Origin: Trueperaceae bacterium
Lineage (GTDB): Bacteria > Deinococcota > Deinococci > Deinococcales > Trueperaceae
Assembly (NCBI GenBank): GCA_965215565.1
Contig: CBDCDZ010000004.1
Location: forward strand, 4,032,001 to 4,096,000
Direction of reading: 5' to 3'
DNA length: 64,000 bases
Shown here: positions 4,167 to 54,655 of the stretch, one piece after another
Numbering within the stretch: the first letter of the stretch is position 1
Layout: every line of letters begins with the position of its first letter
Notes under the pieces: model-generated
What the model was told of the DNA's origin: nothing
Database searches by the model: none
Seen by the model: only the letters and a program-made list of their open reading frames with translations
Translations under genes and position numbers: made by a program

Positions 4167-5265
4167 CTAAAAGTCGGTTGAGTAGTTCAGAGGAGTGAGG
4201 AGCGCTTTGAGCCAGGGCTTGCTGGGTTGTCCGGTGAAGCGTTGCCAGGGAGACTTGTTGCGAATGAGGTGATGATGCCATCTATAGCGGGCTTCTTTGA
4301 ACCAGTCCAAAGCGCGGTGGAAGGCTTTGACAACGCGCTTTTTGTTTCTTGACCATAGAGCGCTATAAAGGGTTTCCGAAGCGTTGTTGGTCAAGGGCAT
4401 CGCCTTGTACTGCCAGTAGAATTCAAGCTGCGTCCAGGCATTCAGTAGCGGCTCGAGCTGGGTTGCGCCGTAGCGAGCGGTGAGGACGCCTAGAAACCAC
4501 CTTGCATCTTTGAGGTTCGTGCAGGTATACAAGAAACGCAGATCAAGCGCCACGAGTTCACGCTCTCTCTTGGGGAACTGCTTCAAGACCTCTTCGATGA
4601 TGTGAAACCAACAGCGTCCATGCGGCTTGTCAGCGAAGTATTCACACGCCGCTTGGATGCTCTTACACCCATCACTGATGATCAGCTTAGGGTTGTGTGC
4701 AGCGATAAGCTCACGAACCACCTCTTCATCACGGTTCTCGCATAGGCGGTAGTCCATAACGGCTTGAGATTTAACATCAGTAAGCGTGTACATCCACCAC
4801 TCGCCTAGTTTGAATTCGTCTATGCTCGCGGCTTTGAGCTTAGTGGGCTTTGCCTGTTTCTCTTCTAGCCGCTCGGCTCTTAGAGCGCGTGTCCCTTGCC
4901 ATGAGGCGCGAGTTTCGCTCTGAATTGGATAACCTAAGTGCTCGGCTACCTCAGCAGCGCAGCTTTCATCAACCTGATGCACATCTAAGATGGCAAAGAT
5001 ACCCTCCACCTTTCGGCTGTACCACTTATAGCGCATGACACCCTCTGGGTAAACACACCCCAAGCTGCCTTTGCACCGCTGACAGCGCACACGCAACACT
5101 TTCTCTTCACGTATACCGTTTACATCTCGGTGTTTCCTGATGCGGTAGCCGCGTTACGGGCAGGCCGCCCTGCCGTTGCCACTCTCAGGCTTCCTTATCT
5201 CGCACTTAGGGCAACGTCTATCCAGTAAACTCGCTTTGGGGTAAGGGTTGTTCGTCGTAAACCAT
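4167..5265 (-). pseudogene. DDE transposase with N-terminal Zn-ribbon (CPKC...CQRC), disrupted
   Basis: ORF 4167-5099 has IDE, IISDG, RCWFH, TNNASE. The upstream in-frame CPKC segment carries a TAA inside a 27-nt insertion, and the RBS-preceded ATG at 5265 is one base out of frame. Confidence 0.75.
5151..5179 (-). mobile_element. 27-nt mini-insertion with GC duplication (SDR-like)
   Basis: GCAACGGCAGGGCGGCCTGCCCGTAACGC (minus strand), identical to 54308-54336; introduces an in-frame stop in the transposase. Confidence 0.7.
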
Positions 5266-5306
5266 TCTTACCCCTCTCTTCTACTCAACCGACTTTTCGT
5301 GCAACC

Positions 5307-6483
5307 CAGGGCTACCGCAAAGTCAGCTTTGAAGAAGTTTAAGGAGATAAGCACGGTCCCAGCCTGCTCTGAGGCGCTTAGCTTCCACGCCAGCTTTGAC
5401 AGTTTTGTCACGCTTCAAGAGGTTTATAGCTAGGTGTCTAAGGGCTACCCAACTTGCTTGGGCGTTTTCTATATGAGCGCGCGAGCTGTCTTCATCAAAG
5501 GCGACATCGAGTACCCAGTGAAGAGCATTCTCAATACCCCAGTGGAAACGTGCGGCTCTAAGCGCACGCGCTGCATCTAGGGGTAAGCTGGAGAGGAAAT
5601 AGCGGGTATGCTCACTGGTATTACCCTCCAGAGTGCGGGTTGCGTGAACTTTAACGAGGCTACTGAGTCCACGCCAAGCCTCACGCTCATGCAACCATTC
5701 AGGTACGGGCGAGACCCAACATTCACGGGTCTCAACACGCCCATGACCCCGCTCAGTGGTCTGGCTGTGTTCTAGTGCCCAGTCAACTTTACCGGCATAA
5801 GCGAAAAAGTCCTTGGTCTCTTCGAACAGAGTCGGATGGTTGTCTTTGAGCGCCAATACGTAGTGAGCGTGGTGTTCTCGAATGGTCCAGGCAATTTGTT
5901 TCTGTGTGCCCATAGCGTCCGTCGTTACCACTGCTCCAGCAGGATTAACGACTTCTAACAACTCAGGAATTACCGTTATCTCGTTGGTCTTGTCGGGCAC
6001 CCCCTTCTGGACCAGTACCACCTCGAACTGGCTTGACCAAACGCTCACTGTGTGCAGCGCGCCCAAGCCTTTTCTATGCGAGCGTCTCGCCGTTTTACCA
6101 TCAACTGCTAGTACCTCATCTTCCCCTTTGGGTAGTTCGGGCAACACCAGCGTCTGCGTCCACGCTAGAAATCTTGAGTGCCACACGTCAGGACTAAGCA
6201 GGGCAAAAACGCGCTCAAAGGTGTCCTGAGAAGGAACACCTGAAGGTAGCTCCAAAAAACTGCTCAGCCACGCTTCTTGTGCCAGCGCGTACTGATGAAT
6301 CTGACTGTAGGTATTGGCTCCGCAGATAACAGCCAAGATACTGATGCTTACTATGTCAAGCAGCTTGTGGCGAACGCCCCGTGGCTTTCGAGGGTCGGAT
6401 AGGTCGGCAAAGTGTGTCAGCAGTTTCGGAACATCAACCTCTGTCATACCTGACTCTACCCCTGTGACTTTGCGGTAGCCCTG
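5307..6483 (-). mobile_element. ISAs1-family insertion sequence, apparently intact
   Basis: Perfect 19-bp TIR CAGGGCTACCGCAAAGTCA (5307-5325 / 6465-6483); 10-bp TSD TCGTGCAACC (5297-5306 / 6484-6493). Confidence 0.95.
5323..6447 (-). CDS. ISAs1-family transposase (374 aa)
   Basis: DPR..RHKL, PSQDTF, AVDGKT, TDAMGTQ, HWGIENALHWVLDVAFDED. The ORF-track extension to 7077 is read-through from the disrupted protease. Confidence 0.95.
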   Translation of the reverse strand: MTEVDVPKLLTHFADLSDPRKPRGVRHKLLDIVSISILAVICGANTYSQIHQYALAQEAWLSSFLELPSGVPSQDTFERVFALLSPDVWHSRFLAWTQTLVLPELPKGEDEVLAVDGKTARRSHRKGLGALHTVSVWSSQFEVVLVQKGVPDKTNEITVIPELLEVVNPAGAVVTTDAMGTQKQIAWTIREHHAHYVLALKDNHPTLFEETKDFFAYAGKVDWALEHSQTTERGHGRVETRECWVSPVPEWLHEREAWRGLSSLVKVHATRTLEGNTSEHTRYFLSSLPLDAARALRAARFHWGIENALHWVLDVAFDEDSSRAHIENAQASWVALRHLAINLLKRDKTVKAGVEAKRLRAGWDRAYLLKLLQS

Positions 6484-6497
6484 TCGTGCAACCTCGG

Positions 6498-7692
6498 AGA
6501 TTCTAACACCTGTACTCTCTATGGTATAAACGGGAGAACCACTATCTCCACTTTCACTATTCGCATTGGCTTGATACTGACAGACGAAGTACTTATCGGT
6601 GTCTTTCTGTCTAACTTTGAAACACGTTTGAATAATCTTACCAGCCGTAACGCCCGTTGTTTTACCCACCTTTTCTACAATTCTACCAGAGTAGAGCTGG
6701 CTATTATCCGTTCTTTTGCCAACTACCGGTAGAGGGTTTTTTGGTGTTATCTCTTTTCCAGGTTTGTTGGATACACGGGCTATCTTGCCTAGACCAACGC
6801 TAACGTTAGTGTCGTATCCGACGAATGCAGAATCGCTATAACGGCAATCGCGTTGAAGAGAGCAAAAGAACCTGCCCTCCCCTCTAAACGGTGGATCAAC
6901 AGTCTCGAGACCAATTCTAGTACCACTAGATTGATAGGCCTGATAAAATCTAGTCCCAGTAGACTGTCCCAGCTTTTCAGTACAGTGGGAGTTAGTCACG
7001 AATCCTTTAACGCCATTATGTACAGCATTAAAACCGAGCACATGAGCTACCTGGGTTTTGGTCAATGAGTATGCCACCTTGCGTTGGTCTCACGGTACTT
7101 TTCAGAGTAGTAGCCGTAGGTGCAGGCGCTTGCTCAACAGCAACGGTTACGGCGTCCTGCGGTATGTTGAACCTAATGATAGCCGCGCGTATTTTGTTTG
7201 CTATCTCTTCGTTCTCGACGCCAAGACATATCTCGTTAGCTACCTCGTCAATGTCGATAATGTTGATACCTACCTCTTCCGCTTTGCTCTCAAACTTCTC
7301 GAGCAACTCGCTCAGCTCCGCAAACGAATATTTGACCTCTTGCGTTATGAGGTTCGGCTCAACCGACTGACTGGACAAGGTTTCTACAGCCCCGAAAACG
7401 TCTTGACCAAACTGCTTGACTAAAGCCGCTTCTATGTCGCTCACACTCGCAGTCTGAAGCTCACTTCTTGCCATGTTCACTACGAGGTCATTGTTGTCGT
7501 CGTAGTAGATGCCCGCGAACCCTGGAACGTCCGCGCCTATCTCTAGAAATTGCTCATCCAGTGTTTTGGGAATATCCGTAAGGTCTGCTTGAGACCCTTC
7601 TGGCTCTGCTTCGAAACTACATGATCCTAACGCAAGTAGCAAAAGCATGGAGAAGATGAGTTTTACATGAGAGGAGGGGTAATTTTAGACAT
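6498..7692 (-). pseudogene. Lipoprotein S1 (chymotrypsin/alpha-lytic-like) serine protease with propeptide; frameshifted twice and truncated by IS
   Basis: Lipobox LGSC; triad motifs VTNSHC, YSDSAF, GDSGSP; frame breaks near 7680 and 7040; AGGAG before ATG 7692. Confidence 0.8.
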
Positions 7693-7864
7693 GGTAACTC
7701 CTAGAGGTCAAAAAGTACTCAACAACAACCGATGCGCCGATGCTAACTACTTTGAGCGGTGCCGCAGCTCCCTTGCCTCCGAAGTATCAATGTTTATAAC
7801 TGTGCAGAAGTTACCATGGATGTAGGAAAAATCAAGTTTTTGACTCTTCATCAATCTTTAAGGA

Positions 7865-7897
7865 AAAGGCTCCTCATTCACGAACAGAGGAGCCTTT
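7865..7897 (-). terminator. Intrinsic terminator hairpin downstream of TPR gene
   Basis: AAAGGCTCCTC...GAGGAGCCTTT. Confidence 0.65.
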
Positions 7898-7922
7898 AAT
7901 GTCTGGTAATGTCTCTGCAAGC

Positions 7923-10097
7923 CTACTGCGCCTGACTCCGCACCTGCTCCAACAACTCACTAAAGCTAAGCTGCTCTTCCGCGCCGACTTGCACCGAGGT
8001 CTCGGTGAGTTCGGGGCGGAGCGTTACCGCCTGCTCGAGCGGTCCCACCGCCTGCGCGTAGCGCTCTAGGTCGTAGTAGATGAGCCCCAAGTTAAGCTGC
8101 GCTTCGGCGTTCTCGGGGTCGGCAGCGACGGCGCGTTCCAGATACTCGATCGCCCTATCGAAGCGCCCCAAGCGGAAGTAAGCGAAGCCCAAGTTATTGA
8201 GCACGGGGGCGCTGTCGCTCAACTCTTCGGACGCTTGCTCGTAGCTCGTCACGGCGTTTCGCAAATCGCCCTGAAGCTGCCGGGCGTACCCCTGATAAAA
8301 GGCTAAGAGCCCGCTGTTTTGCAGCTCTAGCGCCTGCGTGAAGTTCTGCTCGGCGGCGGCGGCGTTCTCCGCCCCCAACGCCGCGAGCCCCGCGCTAAAG
8401 AGCGAGGCGGCTTCGCCCTCCAAGTCGATAGGTTCGCCTTGAGTGAGCGCCTGGTTCTGAGCGATGAGTTGTCTGGCTCTCTGTGCTTGCGCTAGCTCCG
8501 GGTCGAGGCTGAGCGCTTCATCTAAAGCATTGAGCGCCTGGTCGTAGCGCCCGGCGCGCCCTAGCGCGACGCCGTAGAGCGCGTACAATTCGGCGTCTTG
8601 GGGCGACGCGGACAAGAGCGGTTCTAAAAGCTCGATTGCCCCGTCCGTCTGACCTGCCTCGAGGAGAATTTGCGCGAGGTTGAGCTGAACGGTACTGTTC
8701 GTCTGCGAGGCGTTCTCTAAGGTCGCTCTCGCGTCGTCCAACTTGCCCTGCTGCGCCTGCGCGATGGCGAGTTCGTTCGTCACGCGCAGGTTGTCCGGTG
8801 CGAGGCTTTGCGCTTCTTGCAGGACGCTTTCAGCCGCCGCGTAGTCCTCTGTTTGCGACAGCAGCGACGCCTCGGCGAGCGCTAGGCTCACGTCTTGCGG
8901 GTAGGCGCTGCGCCCCTCGCGGACGATCTCCAGAGCTTGCGGTGAGACCTCGCTCGGCAGTTCGGCGGCGAGCGCGTACACATCGGCGGCGGGCGTCTCC
9001 TCGGTGAGCGTCTGCAAGTAGCTGAGCGCGCCCTGCGCGCCGCCTTGCTCGAGCGTTTCGCTGATGAAAGCGCGCTTTAAGGTGGTGGAGTCAGGGACGT
9101 TGGTGGTGCCCTGCTCTAAAGTTTCCAACGTGGCTTGCGCGTCCCCTTGCGCCGCCTGCGCCGAGGCGAGGTCTAAGTAAGCGGGGACGTAGCGCGGGTA
9201 GACGCCAAGCGCCGCTTCTAAATTAGCAATATCGCCTTGCAACCGCCCGAGTCCGGCTAGGGCGAGCGCGTGCGCGGGGTTGAGCAAAAGCGCCGCTTCG
9301 AAAGCGGTTTGCGCCGTCGCCTCGTCGCCGCTCGCCAGGAGCACCGCGCCCCGCGTGACGAGCGCCTCGACGTCTTCGGGAGCGCTCTGAATCGCTGCTA
9401 AAGAGGTGCTGAGCGCGTCCTCCAGTGCGTTCGTGCGCGCGAGAATCTCGGCTTGCTCGGACAAGACCCAGCTCGAGTCAGACTCGAGTCCCAACACTGT
9501 CTCCAGCGCCGCCGAGTCGCTCGTCTGCAACCCCAACGACGCCTCCGCGACGGCGCTCAGGTTTTCCAAGGGCGGCGTTTGCGCGAGCACCGCGTCAATT
9601 TGCTCTCTATCTTGCGCGCTTACGCTCAGTCCCAACTCGCTAACGACGGTGTTCGTTACCGACGTGAGGAGCGCTCCTGGCGCGTCCAGTGCGCCGTTGA
9701 CGGTGACGACTCGGGGCGTGGGGTAGTCGGGTCCAGCGAAGATAATCTGTACCTGCGCCTGATTCCCCGAGACCTCCACCACGCCGCTCACGAGCGCCGC
9801 AGCGTCATACGCCTCCGCGAACACCTCCGGGCTGAGCGTGCCCTGACCCTCGAAGCGCTGCGCCACGAGAAGCGTGTCGCCGACGGGCGGTGCGTAGACG
9901 CCGTCGATGACGTTGAGCACGCGCTGAAGTCCGGTGGCGATACCTAAACGGTAAGGGGCTGCGTTCCCTTGCGCGTCGAAAGCGAGCACGGGCAAGCGCG
10001 TAACCTCTTGGGGGGCGGAAGGTTGAGCGAAGTTTTGGGCGGCTGTGAGAGCCAGCAAAAGGGCGGTCATAAGGGCAAAAAGAGTGCGTTTCATCAC
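7923..10097 (-). CDS. Exported tetratricopeptide-repeat protein
   Basis: Signal peptide; many TPRs (e.g. NNLGFAYFRLGRFDRAIEYLERA). Confidence 0.85.
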   Translation of the reverse strand: MMKRTLFALMTALLLALTAAQNFAQPSAPQEVTRLPVLAFDAQGNAAPYRLGIATGLQRVLNVIDGVYAPPVGDTLLVAQRFEGQGTLSPEVFAEAYDAAALVSGVVEVSGNQAQVQIIFAGPDYPTPRVVTVNGALDAPGALLTSVTNTVVSELGLSVSAQDREQIDAVLAQTPPLENLSAVAEASLGLQTSDSAALETVLGLESDSSWVLSEQAEILARTNALEDALSTSLAAIQSAPEDVEALVTRGAVLLASGDEATAQTAFEAALLLNPAHALALAGLGRLQGDIANLEAALGVYPRYVPAYLDLASAQAAQGDAQATLETLEQGTTNVPDSTTLKRAFISETLEQGGAQGALSYLQTLTEETPAADVYALAAELPSEVSPQALEIVREGRSAYPQDVSLALAEASLLSQTEDYAAAESVLQEAQSLAPDNLRVTNELAIAQAQQGKLDDARATLENASQTNSTVQLNLAQILLEAGQTDGAIELLEPLLSASPQDAELYALYGVALGRAGRYDQALNALDEALSLDPELAQAQRARQLIAQNQALTQGEPIDLEGEAASLFSAGLAALGAENAAAAEQNFTQALELQNSGLLAFYQGYARQLQGDLRNAVTSYEQASEELSDSAPVLNNLGFAYFRLGRFDRAIEYLERAVAADPENAEAQLNLGLIYYDLERYAQAVGPLEQAVTLRPELTETSVQVGAEEQLSFSELLEQVRSQAQ

Positions 10098-10133
10098 CCA
10101 GAAGTATACCTAGTGAGGCGTGAGAAGCAACCG

Positions 10134-10544
10134 TCAGGTCAAGCTGAACCCGTCGGGCAGAAGCTCGGCTGTGCTGAAGCGCTTGACGACGCCCTCGTGG
10201 TTGACCATGTACACGTCCGCGTCTCTCGAAAACTCGAACAGAATCTGCCGACACGCGCCGCAGGGCGTGGCGGGGTCTTCCGCCTCTGTATAGACGACGA
10301 GTTCGGAGAAGCTGCGCTCACCCGCCGACGCCATCGCCTGAATTGCGGACTGCTCCGCGCAGCGCGAGAGCCCATACGAAGCGTTTTCGATGTTCGCGCC
10401 CGTATAAATCTCGCCGCTCTCAGCGCGCAGCGCCGCGCCGACGCCGAACTCCGAATAGGGCACGTAGGCGTTGTCGCGGACGCGCTTAGCCGCGCCCAGT
10501 AAGTCCTGCGGCGCGGTAGGTTTTGAAGATGGAGTGGAAGACAT
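10134..10544 (-). CDS. cdd: cytidine deaminase
   Basis: AYVPYS, GANIENASY, CAE, PCGACRQ. Confidence 0.95.
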   Translation of the reverse strand: MSSTPSSKPTAPQDLLGAAKRVRDNAYVPYSEFGVGAALRAESGEIYTGANIENASYGLSRCAEQSAIQAMASAGERSFSELVVYTEAEDPATPCGACRQILFEFSRDADVYMVNHEGVVKRFSTAELLPDGFSLT

Positions 10545-10640
10545 GGGGCATTCTAGCAGCCGGGGTGGTGAGGAGGTAGGGAGATGAGGACGCGCTTCCT
10601 ATCTCCTCTTATCTAGCACCCGTTGCTACGCAGCTCGAGC

Positions 10641-11114
10641 CTATCCAAAGACCGCCCTCCATAGAGGCGGACCTAGCACGAGAAGGCCTACGAAGATAGA
10701 GCCGACCGCCGCAAGGAGCACCGCGCCCGCCGCCGCGTCTTTGGCGCGCTTAGCGAGCGGGTGAAACTCAGGGGAAACGAGGTTGACGGCCGCCTCGAGC
10801 GCACTGTTCATAATTTCTAATGAGAGCACGAGCAAGCAGCACAGCAAGATGGGGACGAGGTTGACCTGGAGGACCAGACCGAGGAGCAGCGCGAGTGCGC
10901 CTACAGAGACTTCGACGCGGAAGTTCTGCTCGGTGCGCCAGGTTTGCGCGATGCCCATCCAAGCGAAGCCAAATGAGCGGCGCAGCTTTTGGCTGTCGAT
11001 GGTTGCGGACTTTACGGCAGCTTGTCTCGCTACGCTGTCATCTTTATCCGCACCCTCTTCTATGCCCTCTACAGTGTCAGAATGCGCGCCTGAGCGCTCC
11101 TGAACCTCTTCCAC
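10641..11114 (-). CDS. dgkA: diacylglycerol/undecaprenol kinase
   Basis: EQNFR, LEIMNSALE, AKRAKDAAAGAVL; context after ybeY. Confidence 0.9.
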   Translation of the reverse strand: MEEVQERSGAHSDTVEGIEEGADKDDSVARQAAVKSATIDSQKLRRSFGFAWMGIAQTWRTEQNFRVEVSVGALALLLGLVLQVNLVPILLCCLLVLSLEIMNSALEAAVNLVSPEFHPLAKRAKDAAAGAVLLAAVGSIFVGLLVLGPPLWRAVFG

Positions 11115-11515
11115 GCTTCCTCCGTCGGGTGATCATACCCCAAGAGGTGCGTCAGCGCGTGCGCGGCGAGCGTTTTAACCTCTTGCACCAAGGTGTGACC
11201 CTGTTCGGCAGACTGACGCTCGGCGGTCTCCACGCTGATGATAATGTCACCTAAATGAGGAACCTCAGGCATGACGAAGCCCTCAGCGATATCGTCCGGT
11301 TCAGACGTCGGGTAGGAGAGCACGTCGGTGGGCGCGTCCACCTCTCTGTGGGCGCGGTTGAGATCGCGAATCCTCGCGTCGTCAACGAAGACGACTGTGA
11401 CCTCTTTGTGGGAGAGCCCCAGGTCAGCCAGTAGCGCCGTGAGCGCGCGCGCCACCTCCACCTCAAGAGGCCCCTCAAGAGGGAAGTGGGGCGCTTCGTT
11501 TAGCGTCTCGACCAC
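11069..11515 (-). CDS. ybeY: rRNA maturation endoribonuclease YbeY
   Basis: PTDVLSYP, LGDIIIS, HALTHLLGYDH. Confidence 0.95.
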   Translation of the reverse strand: MVETLNEAPHFPLEGPLEVEVARALTALLADLGLSHKEVTVVFVDDARIRDLNRAHREVDAPTDVLSYPTSEPDDIAEGFVMPEVPHLGDIIISVETAERQSAEQGHTLVQEVKTLAAHALTHLLGYDHPTEEAWKRFRSAQARILTL

Positions 11516-13526
11516 GTTTGAGTCCCTTGATCTCCTCCGCGCTCGGGTAGCTCACGCGGCGGTGCAGTATCGCGGTTAGCAGGCGCTCGAAGGTGTTGGC
11601 GATAACCTCTAGATCGTTGAAATTCAGGGGGCTGTCCGCGAGCTGGTCGTCTTGGAGCCGCTGCTCGATGAGCCGGTCGATCATCGCGCGAATGCTGCCC
11701 TGACTCGGCTCGACGAGCGTGCGCGAGGCGGACTCGACGGCGTCGGCGATCATCAGCACAGCGGTCTCTTTGCTCTGCGGACGCGGCCCGGCGTAGCGAA
11801 AGTTAAGTTCTTCGAGCGTGTCCGAATCCTCTAACGCACGTTTGTAGAAGTAACTTAGCACCGTCGTTCCGTGGTGCTCCAGGACGAAGGGCTCCAGCGC
11901 TTTAGGCAACCCGTACTCGCGCACCAAGTCCAAGCCGTCGCGCACGTGGCTCGTGATGATGAGGTAGCTCAGGTGCGGCGAGAGGGTGTCGTGCGGGTTC
12001 TCGCCCGCGAACTGGTTCTCGACGAAAAACTGCGGGCGTTTGAGCTTGCCGACGTCGTGGTAGAGCGCGCCGACGCGGGCTAGGAGCGCGTTCCCGCCGA
12101 TATTGGTGACTGCCTGGTCCACTAAGTTCGAGATGATGAGGCTGTGCTGATAGCTGCCGGGCGCTTCTAAGAGCAGCTTTTGCAGCAGGGGGCTCGAGGG
12201 GCTCATTAACTCCAAGAGGCGGAACTCCGTTAAAAAGCCGAAGTTGCTCTCTGCAAGGGGCAGCGTCGCGAGCGCCAAGATGCCCGCCGCCGCGCCGCCG
12301 CTCGTGATCCAGGCGAGCGAGACGAGCATGGAGAGGCTGCCGAAACTTCCCACGAGCAAGCTGTACGCCGTGAAGCTCAGCGCCGCCACCACGCCGCCCA
12401 AGCTACCCGCGAAGAGGAGCGACGCCCGCGACTTGAAAACCTGCGCGAGCAGGCTCGCCGCCACGCTGCTACTCAGCGCGACGAAAAAGGTGACGAACGC
12501 GGTTGCGGGCGCGAAAAACGCCGTGAGCACCGCGAACCAGACCGAGAGCAAAATGGCGCTCCGCTCCGCGACGATCACGGCGGACAGAAGTGGCACGAAG
12601 GCGATGAAGAGGAGCGTTTCGTCGATGAGCAGCGCCGCGCGCTGCACACCTAGAGCAAGTGTGAAGAGCGTGATGAGAAAGGCGAGCTGCCTAAGTGTGA
12701 GCGTGTCTCTAACGCGCCCATAGAGGTAGACGAGCGGCAAGGAGAGCAGGAGCGCTGTCGCCAAGCAGCCGCCCGCCAAGCGCAGCGCGCGCCTGAGCGA
12801 CTCGGTCCTCGGCTGATAGAAGCCCGTAAGCTCCAACACGCGCAGATCGTCCAGAGTTAAGATATCGCCCTCTTGCAGGATCGCTTCGCCCTCTTGCAGG
12901 GTGCGCATGACCGGCTCGACGCTGCCTGCGGCGGCGTCCCTGGCGGCTTCGGTAAGGCGCGTGTTGGGCTGCGCACTAGAGATGAGCAGGCGCTCTAAGA
13001 GCAACCTGACCCTGAGCCGCTGCCCAGGTTCGGCCAAGGACGCCGCGTCGCGGATGAGACTGGACAGCGCCGCTTCGCTCACCCCTGCCGGGCGGCTGTA
13101 AGCGTCGATGAGAAAACGCTGCACGTTCGCGGGCAAGGTGGACGAGGTGATGGCTCCCAAAACGAGGCGCTGCTGCGACGCGGACGAGGTGTAAATCGTG
13201 TCGATCTGCGACCTAGCATACTGCCGCTCGCGCTCGGTAGCGATTTGGTCGATGACTTGCACCGTCATCGGGGAGACGTAGCGTTGCGGGCTCGGCTGAC
13301 CGAGCTGAAAGTTGCCCTCTTGCCTCGAGCCGTACACGCTGTAAAGGAGGACGGCTAAGACCACTACGAAAAGGAGCGCTGCTAAGACGAGCTGCCACGG
13401 GGCTCGAGCCGACGCCCCTTGCGACATTCTGCGGCGCAAGCGGGCGTTGCTAGGGCTCGTTGCCGCCTTCTGCGCGCCTTTAGGCGCGGTCCCCGCCGCT
13501 TTCGCCACTTTAGGTTTGAGGCTCAT
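11475..13526 (-). CDS. 7TM-HD (HDIG) phosphohydrolase, PgpH/YqfF-like putative c-di-AMP phosphodiesterase
   Basis: Extracytoplasmic domain, multi-TM segment, APGSYQHS, YHDVGK, FFVENQ, HHGT, ADAVES; located between phoH and ybeY. Confidence 0.85.
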   Translation of the reverse strand: MSLKPKVAKAAGTAPKGAQKAATSPSNARLRRRMSQGASARAPWQLVLAALLFVVVLAVLLYSVYGSRQEGNFQLGQPSPQRYVSPMTVQVIDQIATERERQYARSQIDTIYTSSASQQRLVLGAITSSTLPANVQRFLIDAYSRPAGVSEAALSSLIRDAASLAEPGQRLRVRLLLERLLISSAQPNTRLTEAARDAAAGSVEPVMRTLQEGEAILQEGDILTLDDLRVLELTGFYQPRTESLRRALRLAGGCLATALLLSLPLVYLYGRVRDTLTLRQLAFLITLFTLALGVQRAALLIDETLLFIAFVPLLSAVIVAERSAILLSVWFAVLTAFFAPATAFVTFFVALSSSVAASLLAQVFKSRASLLFAGSLGGVVAALSFTAYSLLVGSFGSLSMLVSLAWITSGGAAAGILALATLPLAESNFGFLTEFRLLELMSPSSPLLQKLLLEAPGSYQHSLIISNLVDQAVTNIGGNALLARVGALYHDVGKLKRPQFFVENQFAGENPHDTLSPHLSYLIITSHVRDGLDLVREYGLPKALEPFVLEHHGTTVLSYFYKRALEDSDTLEELNFRYAGPRPQSKETAVLMIADAVESASRTLVEPSQGSIRAMIDRLIEQRLQDDQLADSPLNFNDLEVIANTFERLLTAILHRRVSYPSAEEIKGLKRGRDAKRSAPLPS

Positions 13527-14467: not shown

Positions 14468-14482
14468 GGGTTTCTCCTTGTA

Positions 14483-14618
14483 AAGCGGGTATCATCGGGT
14501 CGGTGAATAGCAGGTAGGGTCACAGACGCACTCACTGTAAATAGCGCCACTCGGCGCACACTCGGTTGAGGTGCTACCTGCGCTATTCCAGTCCAAGTCT
14601 CGAGTCGATAGACATATA
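14483..14618 (+). mobile_element. MITE family B, degenerate copy
   Basis: GCGGGTATCATC...GGTGCTACCTGC core followed by GCTATTCCAGTCCA tail. Confidence 0.6.
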
Positions 14619-20142: not shown

Positions 20143-20146
20143 GTTT

Positions 20147-35666: not shown

Positions 35667-35895
35667 AAGCAGGTAGCATCTGGTCATAAACGCTCTAAGC
35701 GGTGAAGGGGTTGGTCAACGCGCACATTCATATAGCAGGTAGCATCTGGTTTGAGCCAATCTCACGAGATAAAACATTGTTTCACTGTGTGAAAACTGCG
35801 TAAGCAGCACGCACTTTGAGGGATGATGCCTGCGTGATTCAGGCTCAGTACTTCTGCTAACCGCTGTAGATGATGCCTGCGCTACTTCAACCCAG
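35667..35895 (+). mobile_element. Nested MITE family B pair after rpoC stop
   Basis: Inner copy 35733-35866 flanked by TA (35731-32 / 35867-68) inside the outer copy. Confidence 0.8.
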
Positions 35896-42962: not shown

Positions 42963-43350
42963 CAGCGCGCACATTTTGAGATGGTATCTGCGCTCATCCG
43001 TCTCAGTATGTTTTGGAAATGCTATTAAATTAGCGTTTCCACGTTTCATTGCTGTAGCAATGAAACGTGCTTGTCGGATGCGTTCACGAAGTCGCCAGTG
43101 GGAGCGAAGTGACGCGCAAGCCTTAGAAATAAATGCAGGGCAGTTGGTGCAGCGAAGCGTGGAACTGCTAAATGAGGCTTGCGCTATTCCAATTCAGTAC
43201 TTCTGTGGACTGCTTTATAGCAAGTATCATTTGGTTTGAGCCAATCTGAGAAGAGGGAACGTAGTCTAGCGCGCACGTTCGGGAATGATACTTGCGTGAT
43301 TCAAGCTCAGTGCTTATGTGAATTGCTTTATATCGTGGAACTGCTGTGTA
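42960..43350. mobile_element. Nest of at least four MITE family B-related copies
   Basis: Tail at 42960-43024; TAGCGTTTCCACG...CGTGGAACTGCTA 43031-43170 flanked by AAT; tail to 43215; full copy 43218-43328; orphan end CGTGGAACTGC near 43334-43344. Confidence 0.7.
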
Positions 43351-44673: not shown

Positions 44674-44718
44674 GGCTGCCTCCACAAAGTTTGAAGAAGG
44701 TGTTGTCGTGGCTGAGTA

Positions 44719-44764
44719 ATACAGTTCCCGGTTGATTTCTGTAGAAATCAACCGGGAACTGTAT
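44719..44764. repeat. 46-bp near-perfect palindrome (minimal family A-like element)
   Basis: ATACAGTTCCCGGTTGATTTCT-GT-AGAAATCAACCGGGAACTGTAT. Confidence 0.85.
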
Positions 44765-45901: not shown

Positions 45902-46144
45902 GTTGGCAGGGACATTGGCTCAGTAAGGGTGCCCTGACTAGAATTTGGTGTGCGCTACGAATAGATGTCATATCGAAACCTCCTCAGTTTCTGAAAGGTT
46001 GACCTAGATTTAGTTGACCTATCAATCTTTCTGATTCAAGGGTAAGAGGATAGTGTAGGAGGCAACAGGGGCAATCTTTAGCTCTACTTGATTTATTTTG
46101 TGGTCTTCTTATGGTTTGCTCTTTCCGCTCGTTTGCGTTGCGCC

Positions 46145-47257: not shown

Positions 47258-47804
47258 GATCCCCGTGCTCCCCACTCTCCATCGCCCCGCGCAGCTTGAG
47301 CAGGGCGCGTCTGATCTTGCTCCGGATTGTACCAAGGGGTTTTTGCTCGAGTTCTGCGAGTTCCGCGTAGCTGTAGCCCAAGAAGTAGGCGTGTTCGATG
47401 AGGTGGCGCTCTTCTGGGCTGAGCTGCGCAAGGCCGCGCTCGAGCCATAAGCGTGTAACGTCCGGTGAGGCGAGGTCCGACGCGAAGGGCAAGCTAGGGT
47501 CGTGAACGTCCCAGGCGTCCGACTTGAGCGGGCGCGACTGACGCTTGCGCAGCCGTGAATGCGCCGCGTTACGCGCCAAGGTATAGATAAACGCACGCGG
47601 TGAGCGCTCCCAGGTGTGATAAGACGTATTCACATTGAAAAGTTTGTAGAAGACCTCTTGAGAGACCTCCTCAGCCTCCTCGCGGCTACCAAGTAAGTTA
47701 AGCGCCAGGGTGTAGACCTTGGTTCCTAACCGGTCATAGAGTTCACTTAGGGCTGCTTCGTCGCCCTGTGCGGTGCGCGCGAGCAGTGCGGCTTCGGGGT
47801 CCAT
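47244..47804 (-). CDS. ECF RNA polymerase sigma factor (SigK-like)
   Basis: GDEAAL.ELYDR, AEEVSQEVF, SYAELA, PLGTIRSKIRRAL. Confidence 0.9.
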   Translation of the reverse strand: MDPEAALLARTAQGDEAALSELYDRLGTKVYTLALNLLGSREEAEEVSQEVFYKLFNVNTSYHTWERSPRAFIYTLARNAAHSRLRKRQSRPLKSDAWDVHDPSLPFASDLASPDVTRLWLERGLAQLSPEERHLIEHAYFLGYSYAELAELEQKPLGTIRSKIRRALLKLRGAMESGEHGDHGAS

Positions 47805-48396
47805 GTGCCTCGCTTTAGGTGGGGCGCTTAGAGCGGTACTGAGCCAAGAGGTCCTCAAGGGGCAGCGCCCTTTTCACGGTGGACAGCGTGTGGAGAGAAC
47901 AGCGTAAGGCGGAGTAATCTTCGTAGCATTGTAACCTCGCATTACAACCTCCGAGGCTGTCCACTATAAGAAACGCAGGTTCCAGGCTTTTGTATGCGTA
48001 GAGGTGCAGATGGTAGAGCGTGGGTTGTGTCCGGTCCTAAAGACTCGGTCTAATACCGTCTCCGGTTGAATACGAAATAAGTGGTTTGTACTTAACCCGA
48101 GATGCAAGTTGAAATCCGTACAACTCGGCACACGCTTTACCCACACCCTCAATGTTTCCTCGCCTCCAACTGCAACATCCACACTTCTAACGTTCTCGAC
48201 GGCTAAACGTCTAAACAGAGCGTCCTGCTTCGCTTCACCTAACCCTAGTGCATATACCCGGTCCTTCTCTGCGTTTCTGTAAATGAGGAGGGAAGTTTGC
48301 AGCACGCCCGAAGACTAGGGCGAGAGTCTCAGGCTGCGATTACTACTAACTAGCGAGTCATCACCCTAAAACCCCTATTCATTCAAGGAGATACAC

Positions 48397-50106
48397 ATGA
48401 AAGCACTTCATCCATCCGGACGACTCTGGCGCGTCATCGGCTTCGCCGCAGGGCTTCTACTCGCCGCGTGCTCTACGGACACGGCGACACCTGAACCCAA
48501 CGTGCAGAGGGCAGACTTCACGGTCTTTGTTCTCGCCACTAGCGAGGTCGAGGCAGATACCAACACGCTTCAAGCGACGCCTTGGACGCTCGAGCGCGGA
48601 GCCGGCGAAGACGTCCAGGGAGAGGGCCAAGCCGTCGGCGAAACCCCCCTCATTCGGGAGCGCGTCCACACCATGCAGGTAAGCGCCCAGCCGGGCGACG
48701 AGATGACCCTGAACGTCACGATGGGCGCGGGCGAAACGGTGGGCGTTGGACCCTTCAGCCTCTTTGACGGCGCTGGGCCCGCTAATGGTGAGGTGTTGAG
48801 TCAGGGCAACTTGACGGTCGTGGCGAAGCCGAATTCGCTGGCGACGGCTGCGCTAAAGATCGCAACCGTACAACCCGTTGCTTTCAGCGATATCAAGCTC
48901 TCGGGCGACGCCGAAGTGCCCCCCGTCGAGACGGACGCCTCAGGCGAAGCTGCGCTTTTGCTCATCGACAACCTCCTCTTCGCGGTCGGGCGTTTCAGAG
49001 GATTGCAAGGTGAACTGTTCGAGGTCGAAGGGAGCCCCGCTCACATCCATCAGGGCGCGGCGGACGAAAACGGCGACATCGTCTTCGACCTGGCTGCAGC
49101 TGCGAACGAGGCTGGCGACGGCTTTTTCGTCGGACTGGGCAGCCTAGAAGATGAAGAGGTCTTACGCCTCGGAGCGGGCGAGCTTTACATTAACATCCAT
49201 AGCACCTTTAGCGAGTCCGGCGAGCTGCGTGGTCAGATCACCCAAGGTGAGCAGGTTGAACAGCCAGATGAGGATGAAGCGGGAGCGCTCACGCTCAGCG
49301 TCGCGGAGAGTGACGCGTTCGGCGAATACATCACGGATAGTGAGGGTAACAGCCTCTACCTCTTCACCAACGACACGCGCGGCGCAGATGAAAGCACCTG
49401 TAACGGCGAGTGCGCCGAGACCTGGCCCGCGCTGACCTTTGACCCTGACGAAACGAGTCTCGAGGTAGCTGACGGCTTAGACGCGGACCTCTTAGGCAGC
49501 TTCGAACGTGAAGACGGCAGCGTCCAAGTTACCTACAACGGCTGGCCGCTCTACAATTTCTCGGGCGACGGTGAAACGGGCGATACCAATGGACAAGGCG
49601 TCGGTGAGGTCTGGTTCTTAGTCAACCCGGACGGCACCCGCAATATCCCCGATGATGAGTCGGATGAAGACGAGGGTGACGAAGTGGGCGTCCAGCTCGA
49701 GACCCGCGAGAAAGACCCCTTCGGCGCGTACATCACCGACAGTGAGGGCAACAGCCTCTATCTCTTTTTCAACGACGGGAAACGCTCGAGCCAAAGCAAC
49801 TGCAACAATGAGTGCGCCGAAACCTGGCCTCCTCTGACCTTAAGCGAGGGCGAGACGGTTACCGTCGCCGAAGGCAGTGGTTTGGACGCGGACCTCTTGC
49901 GCAGCTTCGAGCGTAACGACGGCAGGGTCCAGGTGACTTACAACGGCTGGCCGCTCTACCGCTTCTCGGGCGACGACGCGCCGGGCGACACAGACGGTAC
50001 GGCGGTGAACCTCTGGTTTTTAGTCACGCCGGACGGCGACGAAAATCTGCCCGACGAGGCGGGCGGTGATGTCAACGACTCAGTGGCCGAGCAGCGTGGG
50101 GACTGA
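48397..50106 (+). CDS. Lipoprotein with CHRD domain and two COG4315/Lipoprotein_15-type repeat modules
   Basis: Lipobox LAAC; LSGDAEVPP..AHIH..LYINIHS..GELRGQI; duplicated LYLF..C..ECAETWP..QVTYNGWPLY. Confidence 0.85.
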   Translation: MKALHPSGRLWRVIGFAAGLLLAACSTDTATPEPNVQRADFTVFVLATSEVEADTNTLQATPWTLERGAGEDVQGEGQAVGETPLIRERVHTMQVSAQPGDEMTLNVTMGAGETVGVGPFSLFDGAGPANGEVLSQGNLTVVAKPNSLATAALKIATVQPVAFSDIKLSGDAEVPPVETDASGEAALLLIDNLLFAVGRFRGLQGELFEVEGSPAHIHQGAADENGDIVFDLAAAANEAGDGFFVGLGSLEDEEVLRLGAGELYINIHSTFSESGELRGQITQGEQVEQPDEDEAGALTLSVAESDAFGEYITDSEGNSLYLFTNDTRGADESTCNGECAETWPALTFDPDETSLEVADGLDADLLGSFEREDGSVQVTYNGWPLYNFSGDGETGDTNGQGVGEVWFLVNPDGTRNIPDDESDEDEGDEVGVQLETREKDPFGAYITDSEGNSLYLFFNDGKRSSQSNCNNECAETWPPLTLSEGETVTVAEGSGLDADLLRSFERNDGRVQVTYNGWPLYRFSGDDAPGDTDGTAVNLWFLVTPDGDENLPDEAGGDVNDSVAEQRGD

Positions 50107-50109
50107 GCG

Positions 50110-51120
50110 GTGTCGCAACGCAAATACCATATAACCGAACAACGCGAAACGACGCCGACGCACTCGGTGCTTGAAGGTATGCAACCTGACCTAACCGACG
50201 AGACCTTAGAGGGCGCACCTGTCAACGTAGCGCTCCAAACGACCTCGGGCGATTCTCCAGACCGGCAGAGACTGCTGACCCTCTCCTTGAACAAGAAGAT
50301 GCAGCGTGCAGTTTTGCATAGCCTTGTAAAATTTGCACCTAAAGCCGCCCTCCAAATCGCCTTCTACAACCTGCTCAGCCCGCGCCTTGGACGCTTGTAT
50401 CACGAGGATGATTTGCCCGTGGGCGCAACCTCTTTCATACTGCCCTATAAGAGGAGCTTTCTGCGCGGCTATAGCTGGGGCGTAGGTGACAGGGTGGTCT
50501 ACCTCGTGCACGGTTGGGAAGGCAATCTAGGGCGTATGCGCAAGTTTGTCGAACCGCTCACCTCTGCGGGTTTCAGAGTTGTCGCGTTTGACGCGCCGAG
50601 CCACGGGCGTTCCGGCAAACAGCTCACCACCTTGAAGGACGTCAGCGCTTCACTGGCGGACGTTGTGACGCACTTCGGTCCTCCGCACGCAATCATCGCT
50701 CACTCGTTGGGCGCAGCCGCGACCGCGCTCACGCTCAAGGAGAAGCCCGCGCTCCTCCCCGCTGCACTCGTTTTCCTCTCGCCGATGAAGTCGCTGCGGG
50801 AACACGTCGATATCTTTAACCTCGCCGCCCAGCTTCCGCCGCACTTAGCAGACGCGCTGACGGCGCAAGTCGAGCGTTACGCGAAGCTCAGCGTGACCAC
50901 AACCGACTTCGGGCGCAACGTCGCCGCGTTACCCATAAAGGGACTTCTCGTCCACGACGAGGAAGATGACATCGTCCCCTTCGCCCCTACGCAGCGCGTC
51001 GCAGAACGTTGGCGCGGCGCGGCGCTCTACAAGGCGAGGGGCCTGGGGCACCGCGGCGTCCTCTACGACGCGGCGGTCATAGGGCGTGTGACGCGCTTTG
51101 TGGCAGACACAGTCCGGTAG
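50110..51120 (+). CDS. alpha/beta hydrolase
   Basis: VHGW, FDAPSHG, AHSLG, HDEED, GLGH; true start uncertain. Confidence 0.85.
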   Translation: MSQRKYHITEQRETTPTHSVLEGMQPDLTDETLEGAPVNVALQTTSGDSPDRQRLLTLSLNKKMQRAVLHSLVKFAPKAALQIAFYNLLSPRLGRLYHEDDLPVGATSFILPYKRSFLRGYSWGVGDRVVYLVHGWEGNLGRMRKFVEPLTSAGFRVVAFDAPSHGRSGKQLTTLKDVSASLADVVTHFGPPHAIIAHSLGAAATALTLKEKPALLPAALVFLSPMKSLREHVDIFNLAAQLPPHLADALTAQVERYAKLSVTTTDFGRNVAALPIKGLLVHDEEDDIVPFAPTQRVAERWRGAALYKARGLGHRGVLYDAAVIGRVTRFVADTVR

Positions 51121-51690
51121 AGGCTCGAGGTTCATATGTGCACATAGCAAGTGACCTCAGTCAAGCCCCCGGTACTTACGCAGCACTGGGGGTCAAACTT
51201 TGAATATTGGTCTCGCTGGAGCCTACCTGAAATCCATCAGTAGATGCCGTGCAGATCGAAAAGGCCGCTCAAGAACTGCCTTTTGCGCTCCCTGAAGCGC
51301 TACCGAGTAACGTAAAAACGAAGCAGCTCTCATCACTTCTAACGAGCCGTGCATATAGTTCGCTCTGCCTTGCGTTTCAAGAAGTAGAGGAGCGAGCCCT
51401 GAGCGTATTGAGTTCTCCCACGAGACGCGCTAAAGCAGACCGGACAACACCTGCGCTCGCTTCCGACTCTAACTACAAGGAAAGGAGGGCGTGAAGAGAC
51501 CCTACTCGTAAGAGGAGCGTGCTTTATCCGCCGAGGGCGTTTCGCAGAAGCAACGCACCTGTGTTCGGGGAGAGGAGGCGAGAGACGAAAAGCGCATGTT
51601 CTCTCGGAAGTTTAGGGAACGTCAGATGACGAACCGGAGTGGCTGTTTCGCCACCAGGTTTACCGCACATAGATCACAGAGAGGAAACTT

Positions 51691-52158
51691 ATGCACACCC
51701 CACTACTCAGAACATTTGTACTCGCGTCTCTCATCGCGGTGCTCGCCGCCTGTTCAGGCGTTGACGCACCTGCCGCTGCTGACGAAGTGCTAGAGACGTC
51801 ACAGAACGACCCTGGCGCTTTCGCTAACGGGGTTGAGGGACCCGCTTCAGACAGACCGGGTCGCGCCGGTGTTTGCTTCTACAGCCTGCCCAACTTCCAA
51901 GGTCGCTCACTCTGTTATCGCCAATCACGACCTGGCTTAGCCCCAAGTGGTACTACTCTTCCCGTCGGCGGGATACGTCCTTCATGGAACGATAGGGCGA
52001 GTTCGCTCATCGTCTCGAGAGGCTGGGACGTCGTCACGTACACTGACGGGGTCTTTCGTGGTCGCGCTGTCGTAGCTGGTGATGCCAACTTCGAACGCAG
52101 GGTGCCACGGCTCACGTTCGACAACAACATGTCATCATTTAGGCTCATCAAACAGTAG
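51691..52158 (+). CDS. Lipoprotein with beta/gamma-crystallin-like domain
   Basis: Lipobox LAAC; CFYSLPNFQG, WNDRASS, FDNNMSSFR. Confidence 0.75.
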   Translation: MHTPLLRTFVLASLIAVLAACSGVDAPAAADEVLETSQNDPGAFANGVEGPASDRPGRAGVCFYSLPNFQGRSLCYRQSRPGLAPSGTTLPVGGIRPSWNDRASSLIVSRGWDVVTYTDGVFRGRAVVAGDANFERRVPRLTFDNNMSSFRLIKQ

Positions 52159-52461
52159 TGAGGGGTTTCGGTTAACCTTCCGGCACAGCAACGCCCGCTT
52201 GTTGGAGGTGTGGTCAATCACTATGAGTTCAGACTGCGTTTGTAGCTGCTCTAAACTCATACAGGTCAGTTCTTGATCTGAGGTTGCGCTGAATCCAGGC
52301 AAATTTGGATAAAGCCCGTCTCTAACGCAAGGCAGGCTCATAAAAGTGTCCGAACTATCATCAAGGGGTAGCTGAGTTTAGGCTCAGCTACCCTAGGCCT
52401 TAGCCCTTGCAGCGCTCGCAGGCATTGCGCTACGCACCACAAAACTTTAAGAGGAGAAACA

Positions 52462-52730
52462 GTGGCTAAGTTAGAAGAAGCACCAGCGCCTAGGTTAGAA
52501 GGAGAAATCGCAACGGTGACACTAGGGGACGCCCGCAGGATCATCGCCGCCGCCGAGAAAAAGGCTGAGGAAATTGGTGAGCGTATGAATATCGCCGTGG
52601 TTGATGTCGGGGGGAACATCGCTTCGCTTTGCGAAAACTTCGTAACGCCCACGTGCATATGGACGGTGGCTGCATAGGCAGCATCGACGATTCAGTGAGA
52701 AAGGCGTACACCTCGAGCGCGTTTAGAATA
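52462..52730 (+). pseudogene. GlcG/HbpS heme-binding protein, frameshifted by a 26-nt insertion and truncated
   Basis: ARRIIAAAEKKA..NIAVVD.GG, then MDG..GSID..KAYTS in another frame. Confidence 0.8.
52621..52648 (+). mobile_element. 26-nt mini-insertion with GC duplication (SDR-like variant)
   Basis: GC-TTCGCTTTGCGAAAACTTCGTAAC-GC; removing 26 nt restores GNIAHVHMDG in frame. Confidence 0.6.
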
Positions 52731-52929
52731 TCTGAAACACCACGCTGCCCTGCTTCTGGACCCGCTTCTTGGAAGGCGAGGGGCGCGCACGGATTCTCAG
52801 CGACTCCAGGTTGTTCGCGTGCTCTGTCCGCCCAACCGGACAGGCTGTGCCCACGGCAGGGGGATATCAAGTACTTCATGATTTGCTTGAGCCGTGTGCG
52901 GTGAAAGTCGCGCGCACGGTTCTTGGGGG

Positions 52930-53806
52930 CGGGAGGCCGGTGACGGTCGTGGGGTTGATGGTGCCGCACGCGGTCAGGCTCCTGCTCGGTCCCGACCACC
53001 GCACGCTGCTGCCCATGAGCATGATTTTGGGCGGGACATTCATGGTGCTCGCCGACTTAGCCGCCCGCACCGCTCGTCTTTGCGGCGCTACGGTTCACCA
53101 CTGCTCGCCCTATCAGAAGGATATCCCTGCTACGGCAGAGGTACTCGAGTCCGTCCACCGCTTCGCGCCGACGCTTCTTTGGCTCTGTCACCCTACCAAC
53201 TCTACAGGTCACGCTTGGCGGGTAGGGGATTTGCGGAAGCTCGCCGAGAGGTGTCAGGAACACGAAGCCTTGCTCGTCCTAGACCTCGCGTACCTGAACT
53301 TTCTCGAGCGCCTCACCCACCACTTACCTCTCCCTTTACTTCACAACGCGGTGCAGCTCTACTCCCTGACTAAGAGCTTTCGGCTGCCGGGCGTCCGCGC
53401 GGGCTACGCGCTCGCGTCCCCTGAGGTCGTGAACGCCTTGGAGCGGAGCGCTCCGCCGTGGCAGATGAGTGTCCACGCGCAAGCCGCTACGGGGTGGGCG
53501 TTCTCCGACGCCGGACGGACGTTTTTGCGGCGGACGCTGCCCGAGTTAGGAGAGGTGAGGCGCGACTTCCAGGCGAAACTTCGTACCCTCGGGTTGCAGG
53601 TTCGGGATACGAGCGCGAACTACTTCTTAGTCGAGGTGGGCGACGCAGTCATCTTTAAGCAAGCCGCCTTGCGAGCGGGCTTCCGCGTGCGCGACTGCGC
53701 GAGCTTCGGCTTGCCGACTCAAGTGCGCCTCGCCGCGCAGCAGCCGCGCGAAAATCAGACGTTTTTGGCGTGGCTCGAGTCAGGCTGGTTACCCGAAGGT
53801 GGCTAG
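52930..53806 (+). pseudogene. Chimera of BtuC/FecCD permease fragment and threonine-phosphate decarboxylase (CobD) C-terminal part
   Basis: VGLMVPHAVRLLLGPDHR..LADLAART joined to PLP-enzyme motifs CHPTNSTG, LVLDLAY, SLTKSF.LPGVRAGY. Confidence 0.75.
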
Positions 53807-54655
53807 AGCGCTGATGGTCCAGGGCTGCACCTCGGACGCGGGCAAGTCGTACCTGATAGCGGGCTTGTGCCGCTTTTATGCGAAGCGCGGCGTCAAGGTC
53901 GCGCCCTTCAAGGCGCAGAACATGAGCAACAACGCGGGCGTCACGCCTGAGGGGTTAGAGATGGGACGTGCGCAGCTCTTGCAAGCCCAAGCCGCCCGCG
54001 CCAGCCCCGAAGTCCGCAGGGGCTGACGGACGAGGTGGCGCACCTCGCTAAGCTCGGTGTGCCCATTTTGGGGGTCTGCGGCGGTTTGCAGATGCTCGGA
54101 CGCGCAATTCGTGACCCTGACGGGGTCGAAGCTACCGGGAGCGCGAGGGGCTTGGGACTGCTCGACGTGACAACCGTATTCGCAGGGGATAAAGTCACCC
54201 GGCAGACCACAGCGCATCTCCTACCTACGGGGGACACCGTTACGGGTTACTAGCAGTTCCACGACATACTGAGACAGTTGAGCGCAGATCTCTGTCCGCA
54301 AGGACTAGCGTTACGGGCAGGCCGCCCTGCCGTTGCGGGATTTCATCCCTCGAAGTGCGTGCTAGACTGTTCATTTCTCACTAAGGGTGTTTCTGACCAG
54401 ATGATACCTGCTATACGAAATACATCATGGGCGAACCCGAGCAGGGAAGGGTGCGCGACCCTTACTCAGCGGCGGTCTAGGCTTTATTCAGGGTAATGTG
54501 ATGGGCGTTTACGCCCACGGCTTGTTTAGCAGCGCCACGTTTAGACGGTGGTTTCTAGGACACCTTGGCGTTCAAGCGTCTCAGCGGGACTGGCTCACCC
54601 ACGTAGACGCCGCGCTCGACACGCTCGCCGATCACCTGGAAGAGCACCTGGATGT
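53799..54655 (+). pseudogene. cobQ: cobyric acid synthase CobQ, internally deleted and MITE-interrupted
   Basis: [38 protein letters not shown] split; YAHGLF. Confidence 0.88.
54251..54413 (-). mobile_element. MITE family B full copy inserted in cobQ
   Basis: TAGCAG...CTGCTA ends, TAC on both sides (54248-50 / 54414-16). Confidence 0.88.

Follow-up and report, generated by a model that had tools for sequence, protein, structure and literature searches.

Very small hairpin elements of two classes, very probably mobile, in a Trueperaceae chromosome

The stretch of DNA discussed here, 64,000 nucleotides long and called the window below, comes from contig CBDCDZ010000004.1 of a Trueperaceae bacterium, and belongs to a 4.39-Mb chromosome in an assembly of 4.49 Mb that is 99.99% complete. 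Within it lie an IS256-like insertion sequence (IS) with a stop codon in its transposase frame, a frameshifted gene of the glcG/hbpS type, and several copies of a miniature inverted-repeat transposable element (MITE). The two genes and two of the MITE copies each hold a non-coding insertion of fewer than 30 nucleotides. These insertions fall into two classes, A and B, whose coordinates and hosts are collected in Table 1. Both are very probably mobile, and the question is how elements this small might move. Below, G000 is the genome under study; G001 and G002 are two sister genomes of the same genus, and all three are rich in the elements.

The original prediction began with a 29-mer, here the class A element, said to occur identically in the transposase frame and inside a MITE. 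Both copies are indeed present, on the minus strand, in a window where a second copy would be expected by chance 3e-12 times. G000 as a whole contains 30 exact copies, or 36 if up to two mismatches are allowed. These 36 occupy four unrelated sites: 30 lie at one site in the MITE, two in copies of the IS256-like element, three in a second repeat family, and one in a third context. The TAA that class A brings into the transposase is the sole internal stop of that frame, and it disappears, as had been claimed, when 27 nt are removed. Both sisters show a gap of exactly 27 nt at this place, where their reading is uninterrupted, E[S/G]GGYR; the second chromosomal copy of the IS256-like element in G000 bears class A as well. 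Empty sites, which the original prediction had proposed to look for, are also found within G000. The unoccupied MITE site has 48 exact matches to three variants of 15-16 nt, 44 of 67 parsed sites are empty (189 MITE copies were parsed), and the second repeat family has empty alleles.

The class A element is one imperfect palindrome with imperfect, off-set inverted arms, so that, for class A, the earlier statement that these elements lack terminal inverted repeats does not hold as it stands. A 2-nt repeat, GC at most sites, flanks it. A 22-nt variant has GA at both sides (3 copies) and a 15-nt truncated core has GC at both sides; thus, the 2-nt repeat is a genuine feature of class A. Longer relatives hold cargo within the loop. 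Class A likely represents the core, without cargo, of a palindromic element distinct from class B; the enzyme that moves it may be related or different, and no partner transposase for it was identified.

The insertion in glcG had been read as 26 nt long, with a CGTAAC-GC end and a GC duplication like those of class A. Comparison with the G002 ortholog gives a different answer. When deletions of 14-35 nt are scanned, the best is 23 nt, with 102 of 150 nucleotide identities, versus 61 of 150 for 26 nt. Removing 23 nt gives GGNIAAHVHMDG, which aligns gap-free with GGNLVAHVRMDD of the ortholog. No target duplication remains, and the C-GC after the insert is the gene's own. Thus, the shared end and the GC duplication stand for class A and fall for class B, and the single architecture once proposed joined two classes that share just the CGTAA motif. 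The signature CGTAACGC was likewise set aside, as it is not over-represented (279 observed, 240-253 expected). The converse attempt, to read class A by the class B rule with an end at CGTAA, was rejected because it would need base changes relative to the orthologs. The 23-mer of glcG occurs in three contexts, glcG itself and MITE sites. A 24-nt class B element also lies in frame in hicA, at T|AC (the bar marks the cut), where the G002 ortholog is empty; at other places, G002 matches this variant over its full length at least 8 times.

Table 1. Positions in the window of the class A and class B elements and of the repeats and genes that host them (nt, nucleotides).
Feature	Position	Strand	Remarks
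Class A element	5151-5179	minus	25-nt hairpin core at 5153-5177 with GC on either side; net 27 nt; puts TAA into transposase frame
Class A element, identical copy	54308-54336	minus	within a hairpin sub-insert of the host MITE
IS256-like insertion sequence hosting class A	4157-5306	minus	weak matches to NCBIfam transpos_IS256 and Pfam Transposase_mut
Class B element	52623-52645	minus	23 nt; mini-hairpin pair in tandem, with GAA and AAA as minus-strand loops; no target duplication; frameshifts glcG/hbpS
GlcG/HbpS-like pseudogene (Pfam PF03928) hosting class B	52462-52740 (end approximate)	plus	similarity to ortholog stops further downstream too
Class B element	35781-35803	minus	23 nt, AC next to its 3' end; hosted by a MITE copy; not noticed in the original prediction
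Host MITE, collects nested micro-elements	54251-54413	minus	empty form about 110 nt; TAGCAG..CTGCTA as ends; TA on either side in most cases
MITE copy with class B element	35733-35830 (right end not mapped)	plus	
Empty MITE copy (control), no insert of either class	43218-43345	plus	
Empty MITE copy (control), no insert of either class	60553-60665 (right end approximate)	plus	

The rule that defines class B comes from a de novo search for filled and empty site pairs, repeated inside repeats with shorter flanks. This gave 859 events, of which 589 are free of tandem repeats and of ambiguities above 6 nt; they represent 391 distinct sequences. Inserts of 17-27 nt proved to be numerous. Seventy-six of the 391 form the curated class B set (17-29 nt, ambiguity up to 3 nt, readable as T..hairpin|AC), a count of sequences that overstates independent events, as the variants are related. 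The T start, the AC flank and the terminal hairpin were used to choose them; the loop sequence was not. The 76 inserts have 245 exact copies in G000, none of them on the three small contigs. Both searches for further copies thus succeeded, for class A and for class B.

A class B element has the form T..[stem-GNA-stem]..[stem-GNA-stem]|AC on one strand. Its length is 17-26 nt, with 67 of 76 at 21-24 nt. The triloop is GNA in 50 of 59 cases and AAA in 6 of 59, while the opposite strand reads GNA once in 59. The terminal hairpin is closed by C-G in 67 of 76 inserts. A second GNA or GNNA mini-hairpin lies upstream in 57 of 76, as against none on the opposite strand and a mean of 3 (maximum 9) in shuffled sequences. 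The stems vary, with 8 different 2-bp stems in hairpin 1 and 22 stems in hairpin 2. The commonest tail has 214 matches, versus 7 in a genome simulated by an order-4 Markov model. Used loosely as a genome-wide detector, the two-hairpin grammar proved too unspecific (376 matches, 210 in simulation) and was dropped.

Insertion is precise at both ends, with neither target duplication nor deletion, and the 3' end is flush with the hairpin. The 3' flank is AC, less often AG, GG or GC; the 5' flanks vary. Among 58 distinct contexts of 4+4 nt, 53 have AC, in a set partly selected for AC. A wider set of 100 distinct, unambiguous inserts with a 3'-terminal hairpin has 60 that read T..|AC and 12 that read T..|AG, some of the remainder being shifted duplicates. 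The 5' starts include TTAC, TGTAC, TCTG and TGAGC. Class B elements also nest, entering their own TT|AC, the hairpin|AC junction, and hairpin loops. The assembled contigs of one sample gave no clean skip of either class.

Empty sister alleles are thus seen at three unrelated genes: the transposase (27 nt), glcG (23 nt) and hicA (24 nt, T|AC). As these insertions are missing from the orthologs examined, movement went on after the species split. Of the 245 class B copies, 194 have a MITE motif no more than 150 nt away; 30 of the 36 class A copies share one MITE site. Occupied sites tend to be found together on a given MITE copy (p down to 2e-7), with all combinations present, as expected from MITE copying and recombination. 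G000 shares the class A MITE site with G001, and the second-family site with G001 and G002; these insertions are therefore older than the species split, and their copy numbers reflect spread of the host repeats. One might therefore see the elements as mostly passengers, seeded by a few rare template-switch or recombination events and spread by MITE copying and gene conversion. This is improbable as the whole account, since it covers copy number and not origin: it leaves unexplained why glcG, hicA and the transposase each hold one precise insertion that sister species lack, why the 58 contexts follow a common target rule, and why the stems show compensatory changes. Most copies did spread by riding on host repeats, and the original claim of a family active in this lineage, resembling the small dispersed repeats (SDRs) of cyanobacteria, is to be read in that light. 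Filled and empty pairs within the genome and across species bear it out; "active" means only movement since the sister species separated.

The intermediate is probably DNA. Mini-hairpins of the GCGNAGC and GCGNNAGC types are very stable as DNA and much less so as RNA (PMC13037366), and the confinement of GNA triloops to one strand favors single-stranded DNA over RNA. Movement through an RNA template and a reverse transcriptase, suggested in the original prediction, is quite unlikely. It would be consistent with the four RVT_1 genes of group-II-intron size in G001, and with RNA folding energies that are no worse than those for DNA. Such templating had reportedly been proposed for the cyanobacterial SDRs. 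However, RVT_1 has no match in G000, for all its completeness, or in G002; neither a donor array nor, in seven loci, an Rfam match was found, which disappoints the expectation of a longer donor RNA. The main class B tail lies on the sense strand of the genes beside it about as often as on the other (48 versus 44), and triloops on stems of 2-3 bp make poor RNA structures (PMC13037366).

How, then, might folded single strands be inserted? Enzymes of the HUH type cut them through a 5'-phosphotyrosine and then rejoin them (PMC8266576). The explanation preferred here, which may equally well prove right or wrong, is that non-coding elements of 17-27 bases move as folded single-stranded DNA by means of a strand-transfer enzyme acting in trans, most likely of the HUH (Y1/REP-type) family, REP standing for repetitive extragenic palindrome. 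The two GNA mini-hairpins would be the recognition signal, and would also shield the short strand; such hairpins resist nucleases and bind SSB poorly (PMC13037366). The enzyme would cut at N|T and at hairpin|AC, and exchange strands with a target N|AC. Each insertion would rebuild the target at its own 3' junction, and tandem and nested arrays would thereby be explained.

An alternative dispenses with any dedicated enzyme. Here, the twin mini-hairpins would be what nucleases leave over when single-stranded DNA is broken down; a housekeeping enzyme capable of strand transfer (a type IA topoisomerase, for example) and a ligase would then capture them at nicks 5' of A. The ends look the part, with 3' ends flush with the stem and 5' ends 1-3 nt ahead of the first hairpin; mini-hairpins do block exonucleases (PMC13037366), and no partner gene was found. 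Trimming alone, however, would blur the ends, whereas the 5' base is T in 81 of 100 inserts despite a variable distance to the hairpin, and identical ends return at unrelated sites. Further, high copy numbers are limited to one genus, yet such enzymes are universal. This alternative is therefore unlikely, although it is a stronger competitor than the passenger account. More speculatively, the elements could form a distinct mobile class, in which two nuclease-resistant GNA mini-hairpins make up the whole element, cut out and inserted as a single strand of 17-26 bases, and in which either an enzyme reads the bases 3' of its cut (N|AC, N|T), unlike the described HUH transposases, or host enzymes act without a dedicated gene. 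This is possible, if doubtful; were it true, the same chemistry would account for the cyanobacterial SDRs and yield a tool for scarless insertion of short oligonucleotides.

Several observations weigh against the preferred explanation, movement of folded DNA by an HUH-type enzyme in trans. The relatedness of the class B variants has been mentioned. A pairing test by position, with the first G..A loop as its anchor (a choice that puts some loops in the wrong place), found 49 and 47 of 69 paired, where the null gives 32 and 29. Nearest-neighbor folding separates neither the two strands nor DNA from RNA, and single elements fold no better than shuffled ones (z of -1.0 to -1.7). Class B shows no clear lagging-strand preference of the IS200/IS605 kind (110 of 245, p=0.13), in a chromosome whose replichores are poorly defined and whose genes are unbiased too (1257 of 2570); a count of 25 of 77 in one class (p=0.003) was noisy and was not reproduced on parsed copies. 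In IS608 and ISDra2, the shared target bases lie on the opposite side of the cut, so that class B, with its target bases 3' of the cut, is their mirror image. No enzyme gene is tied to the elements, and no candidate enzyme gene is flanked by elements of either class.

The best candidate mobilizer, available but not implicated, is an intact REP-type tyrosine transposase (RAYT) encoded between mutS and mutL (G000:C4:3590035-3590550, locus L112). The Pfam Y1_Tnp model missed it and NF047646 found it below the cut-off; family searches can thus overlook divergent enzymes. The gene stands at the same site in G001 and in a genome outside the element-rich trio, G018. Four points count against its having moved the elements. 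A GTAG-tagged REP of its own, with 37 strand hits, lies inside its coding sequence. The gene was not found in G002, where the site is cleanly empty. Relatives match 11 further genomes outside the genus, none of them rich in class B. Finally, the cuts made by characterized enzymes of the TnpA-REP type fall at C|T or C|A (PMC8266576), whereas C precedes the cut in just 2 of the 58 class B contexts, so that the cut sites do not match. G002, for its part, retains many of the REPs of this RAYT, and its absence there is therefore compatible with an earlier role.

Other enzymes follow the elements no better. The sole Y1_Tnp match in G000 is a domain inside a restriction-modification gene. Both RAYT-like genes of this genome bear REPs other than A or B. 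The scan of called genes for HUH motifs gave no further candidate, and IS200-type tnpA was not found in G000, G001 or G002. Ku has no match in the genus, and the match patterns of RVT_1, Ku and GIY-YIG do not follow the elements. An ssnA-like gene, encoding a GIY-YIG nuclease, was not found in G000 or G001 and occurs, among the loci fetched, solely in G002 and G018. A small GIY-YIG gene beside MITEs in G001 and G002 is syntenic, the MITE lying on opposite sides of it, and was taken as coincidence. Of the two mechanisms offered in the original prediction, mobilization in trans by an enzyme remains the best reading; none of the genes it proposed to look for (reverse transcriptase, HUH(Y1), IS110) tracks with the elements.

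The restriction-modification gene just mentioned, of the Eco57I type, is itself a curiosity (G000:C4:3784708-3788667; L001:6708-10667, minus strand). It carries the Y1/RAYT domain together with palindromic REPs in frame. Its REP counts 66 copies in G000, 24 in G001, 21 in G002 and 15 in G018, where it also flanks a free-standing homolog.

Identical IS110 elements (312 amino acids), seven in number and including that at G000:C4:3106148-3107086 (locus L096), have each entered a different MITE copy, always at the same TC core close to its left end. Two stretches of the 5' non-coding region of this IS110 match the target flanks, and were read by eye as the target guides of a bridge RNA. Its recombinase might be supposed to move the micro-elements, since all seven copies target the same MITE and since class A has a 2-nt repeat, which would be the core, and off-set inverted arms. 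This is very improbable. The IS110 core is TC, its ends are unlike those of A or B, and class B has no shared core; a double-stranded circle of 25 bp is implausible. As a partner of the MITE, the IS110 was likewise rejected; it is a parasite of the MITE.

The elements are concentrated in one genus. One class B tail pattern has 134, 72 and 100 matches in its genomes (n=3) and 0-6 in 58 others. A pattern for the 21-nt class gives 57, 18 and 21 matches in the genus. Elsewhere in the family, three genomes from other genera have 5, 2 and 1 matches; the 181 genomes that represent other families have none. A 23-nt class B pattern occurs at 13 places among 185,579 species genomes, seven of them in two Trueperaceae assemblies and none in a genome titled cyanobacterium. 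Five genomes outside Deinococcota with a single B-like match have just 1-4 tail motifs each. Scans of viral sequences gave 0, 0 and 1 match, and scans of metagenomes 0 and 0. The one viral match is in a phage, where a 21-nt class B sequence forms part of a long imperfect hairpin (L133:1480-1575), and is probably coincidental; this hairpin resembles an integron attC site.

The host MITE is distributed more widely. Its motif has 297 matches in G000, 74 in G020, 14 in G005 and 3 in G018; the last three genomes have 0-5 matches to class B tails. The scaffold is conserved with highly variable mosaic segments across about 300 genome sites; G018 has shorter forms, whose inverted ends measure 14 bp, and the left end forms tandem repeats of 20-27 nt in G000 and G020. 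The TA flanks suggest an element of the IS630 type; its partner transposase was not found, and no gene family is enriched beside the MITEs. The copies in G020 (loci L064 and L066) hold another polymorphic hairpin insert of about 18-22 nt, which suggests a separate family of micro-elements in another genus.

Three further features may be recorded. An ISAs1-like transposase in the window (5323-7077; DDE_Tnp_1_assoc and DDE_Tnp_1) directly adjoins the IS256-like element, and appears fused in frame to an unrelated upstream coding stretch. Right after the truncated glcG, a chimeric frame (52769-53806) with FecCD and aminotransferase matches marks a decayed region. Outside the chromosome, the 23.7-kb contig C3 holds a plasmid-like unit of about 11 kb roughly twice, and is probably an assembly concatemer.

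Tiny insertions as such are, of course, already known, and how elements of 20-30 bases move has been a standing question since SDRs were described. From the many natural variants and their empty alleles an explicit rule can be drawn: a T at the 5' end, two GNA mini-hairpins, a 3' end flush with the hairpin, and AC as the target. The question of mobility thereby becomes one for an assay with oligonucleotides and a candidate enzyme that can be named. The literature searched, which leaves out most subscription papers, holds no account of such elements in Deinococcota and no statement of the rule T..GNA..GNA|AC. Since they interrupt a transposase, and since ordinary genes are frameshifted or lengthened by them, the elements are a source of small indels that annotation would deem errors.

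Among known systems, the REPs and REPINs moved by TnpA-REP (PMC8266576, PMC3116915) are also strand-specific, non-coding small DNA hairpins served by an enzyme in trans, and G000 has such an enzyme and two separate REP families. Class B, however, lacks a GTAG or GGAG tag and does not flank a RAYT gene; it has two tandem hairpins and flush ends, and would be cut at N|A and N|T, where those enzymes take C|T or C|A. The class A cut site is ambiguous by 2 nt. The IS200/IS605 elements (IS608, ISDra2) and their non-autonomous forms share with class B alone two hairpins, precise ends and the lack of target duplication. Class B is about ten times shorter, with no space for guide tetranucleotides, and its conserved target bases lie 3' of the cut, unlike the fixed 5' target of 4-5 nt in that family. 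The guide-tetranucleotide rule (PMC8266576), tried on class B, does not fit its 5' flanks.

Ssn-related motifs (NTS/SRM) and the SsnA GIY-YIG nucleases (PMC11893778) offer oriented single-stranded hairpin repeats. The ssnA-like gene of G002 (contig C10, locus L083) is flanked by SRM-type repeats with extra GNA mini-hairpins, motifs similar to those of class B, and one B-type 21-mer lies in an SRM of G018. However, of the three element-rich genomes just G002 has such a gene, flanked by its own SRMs, and SRM-like matches in G000 number at most one. SsnA is a nuclease for which the available portion of PMC11893778 shows no joining activity.

In their behavior, class A and class B work like cyanobacterial SDRs, a likeness of behavior and description that does not file them as SDRs. 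The SDR1-8 of Nostocaceae (Elhai et al. 2008, Genome Res 18:1484) are reportedly dispersed repeats of about 21-27 nt in many copies. They are said to nest in themselves and in mini-transposons, with structure kept by compensatory changes. The present elements resemble them, SDR4-6 especially, in size (17-26 nt for class B, 27 nt net for class A), in dispersal (245 exact class B copies), in nesting within each other and the MITE, in precise insertion, and in having no known enzyme. Class B stems likewise vary compensatorily, with 8 and 22 stem types among related, not independent, sequences. That work is cited in PMC5861425, PMC3116915, PMC4390886, PMC2884548 and PMC13756078; according to PMC5861425, SDRs were reported in Nostocaceae alone, and SDR5 inserts precisely into HIP1 (PMC4390886). 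The elements described here differ in having a host in Deinococcota, a target N|AC instead of HIP1, and evidence that favors DNA, not RNA.

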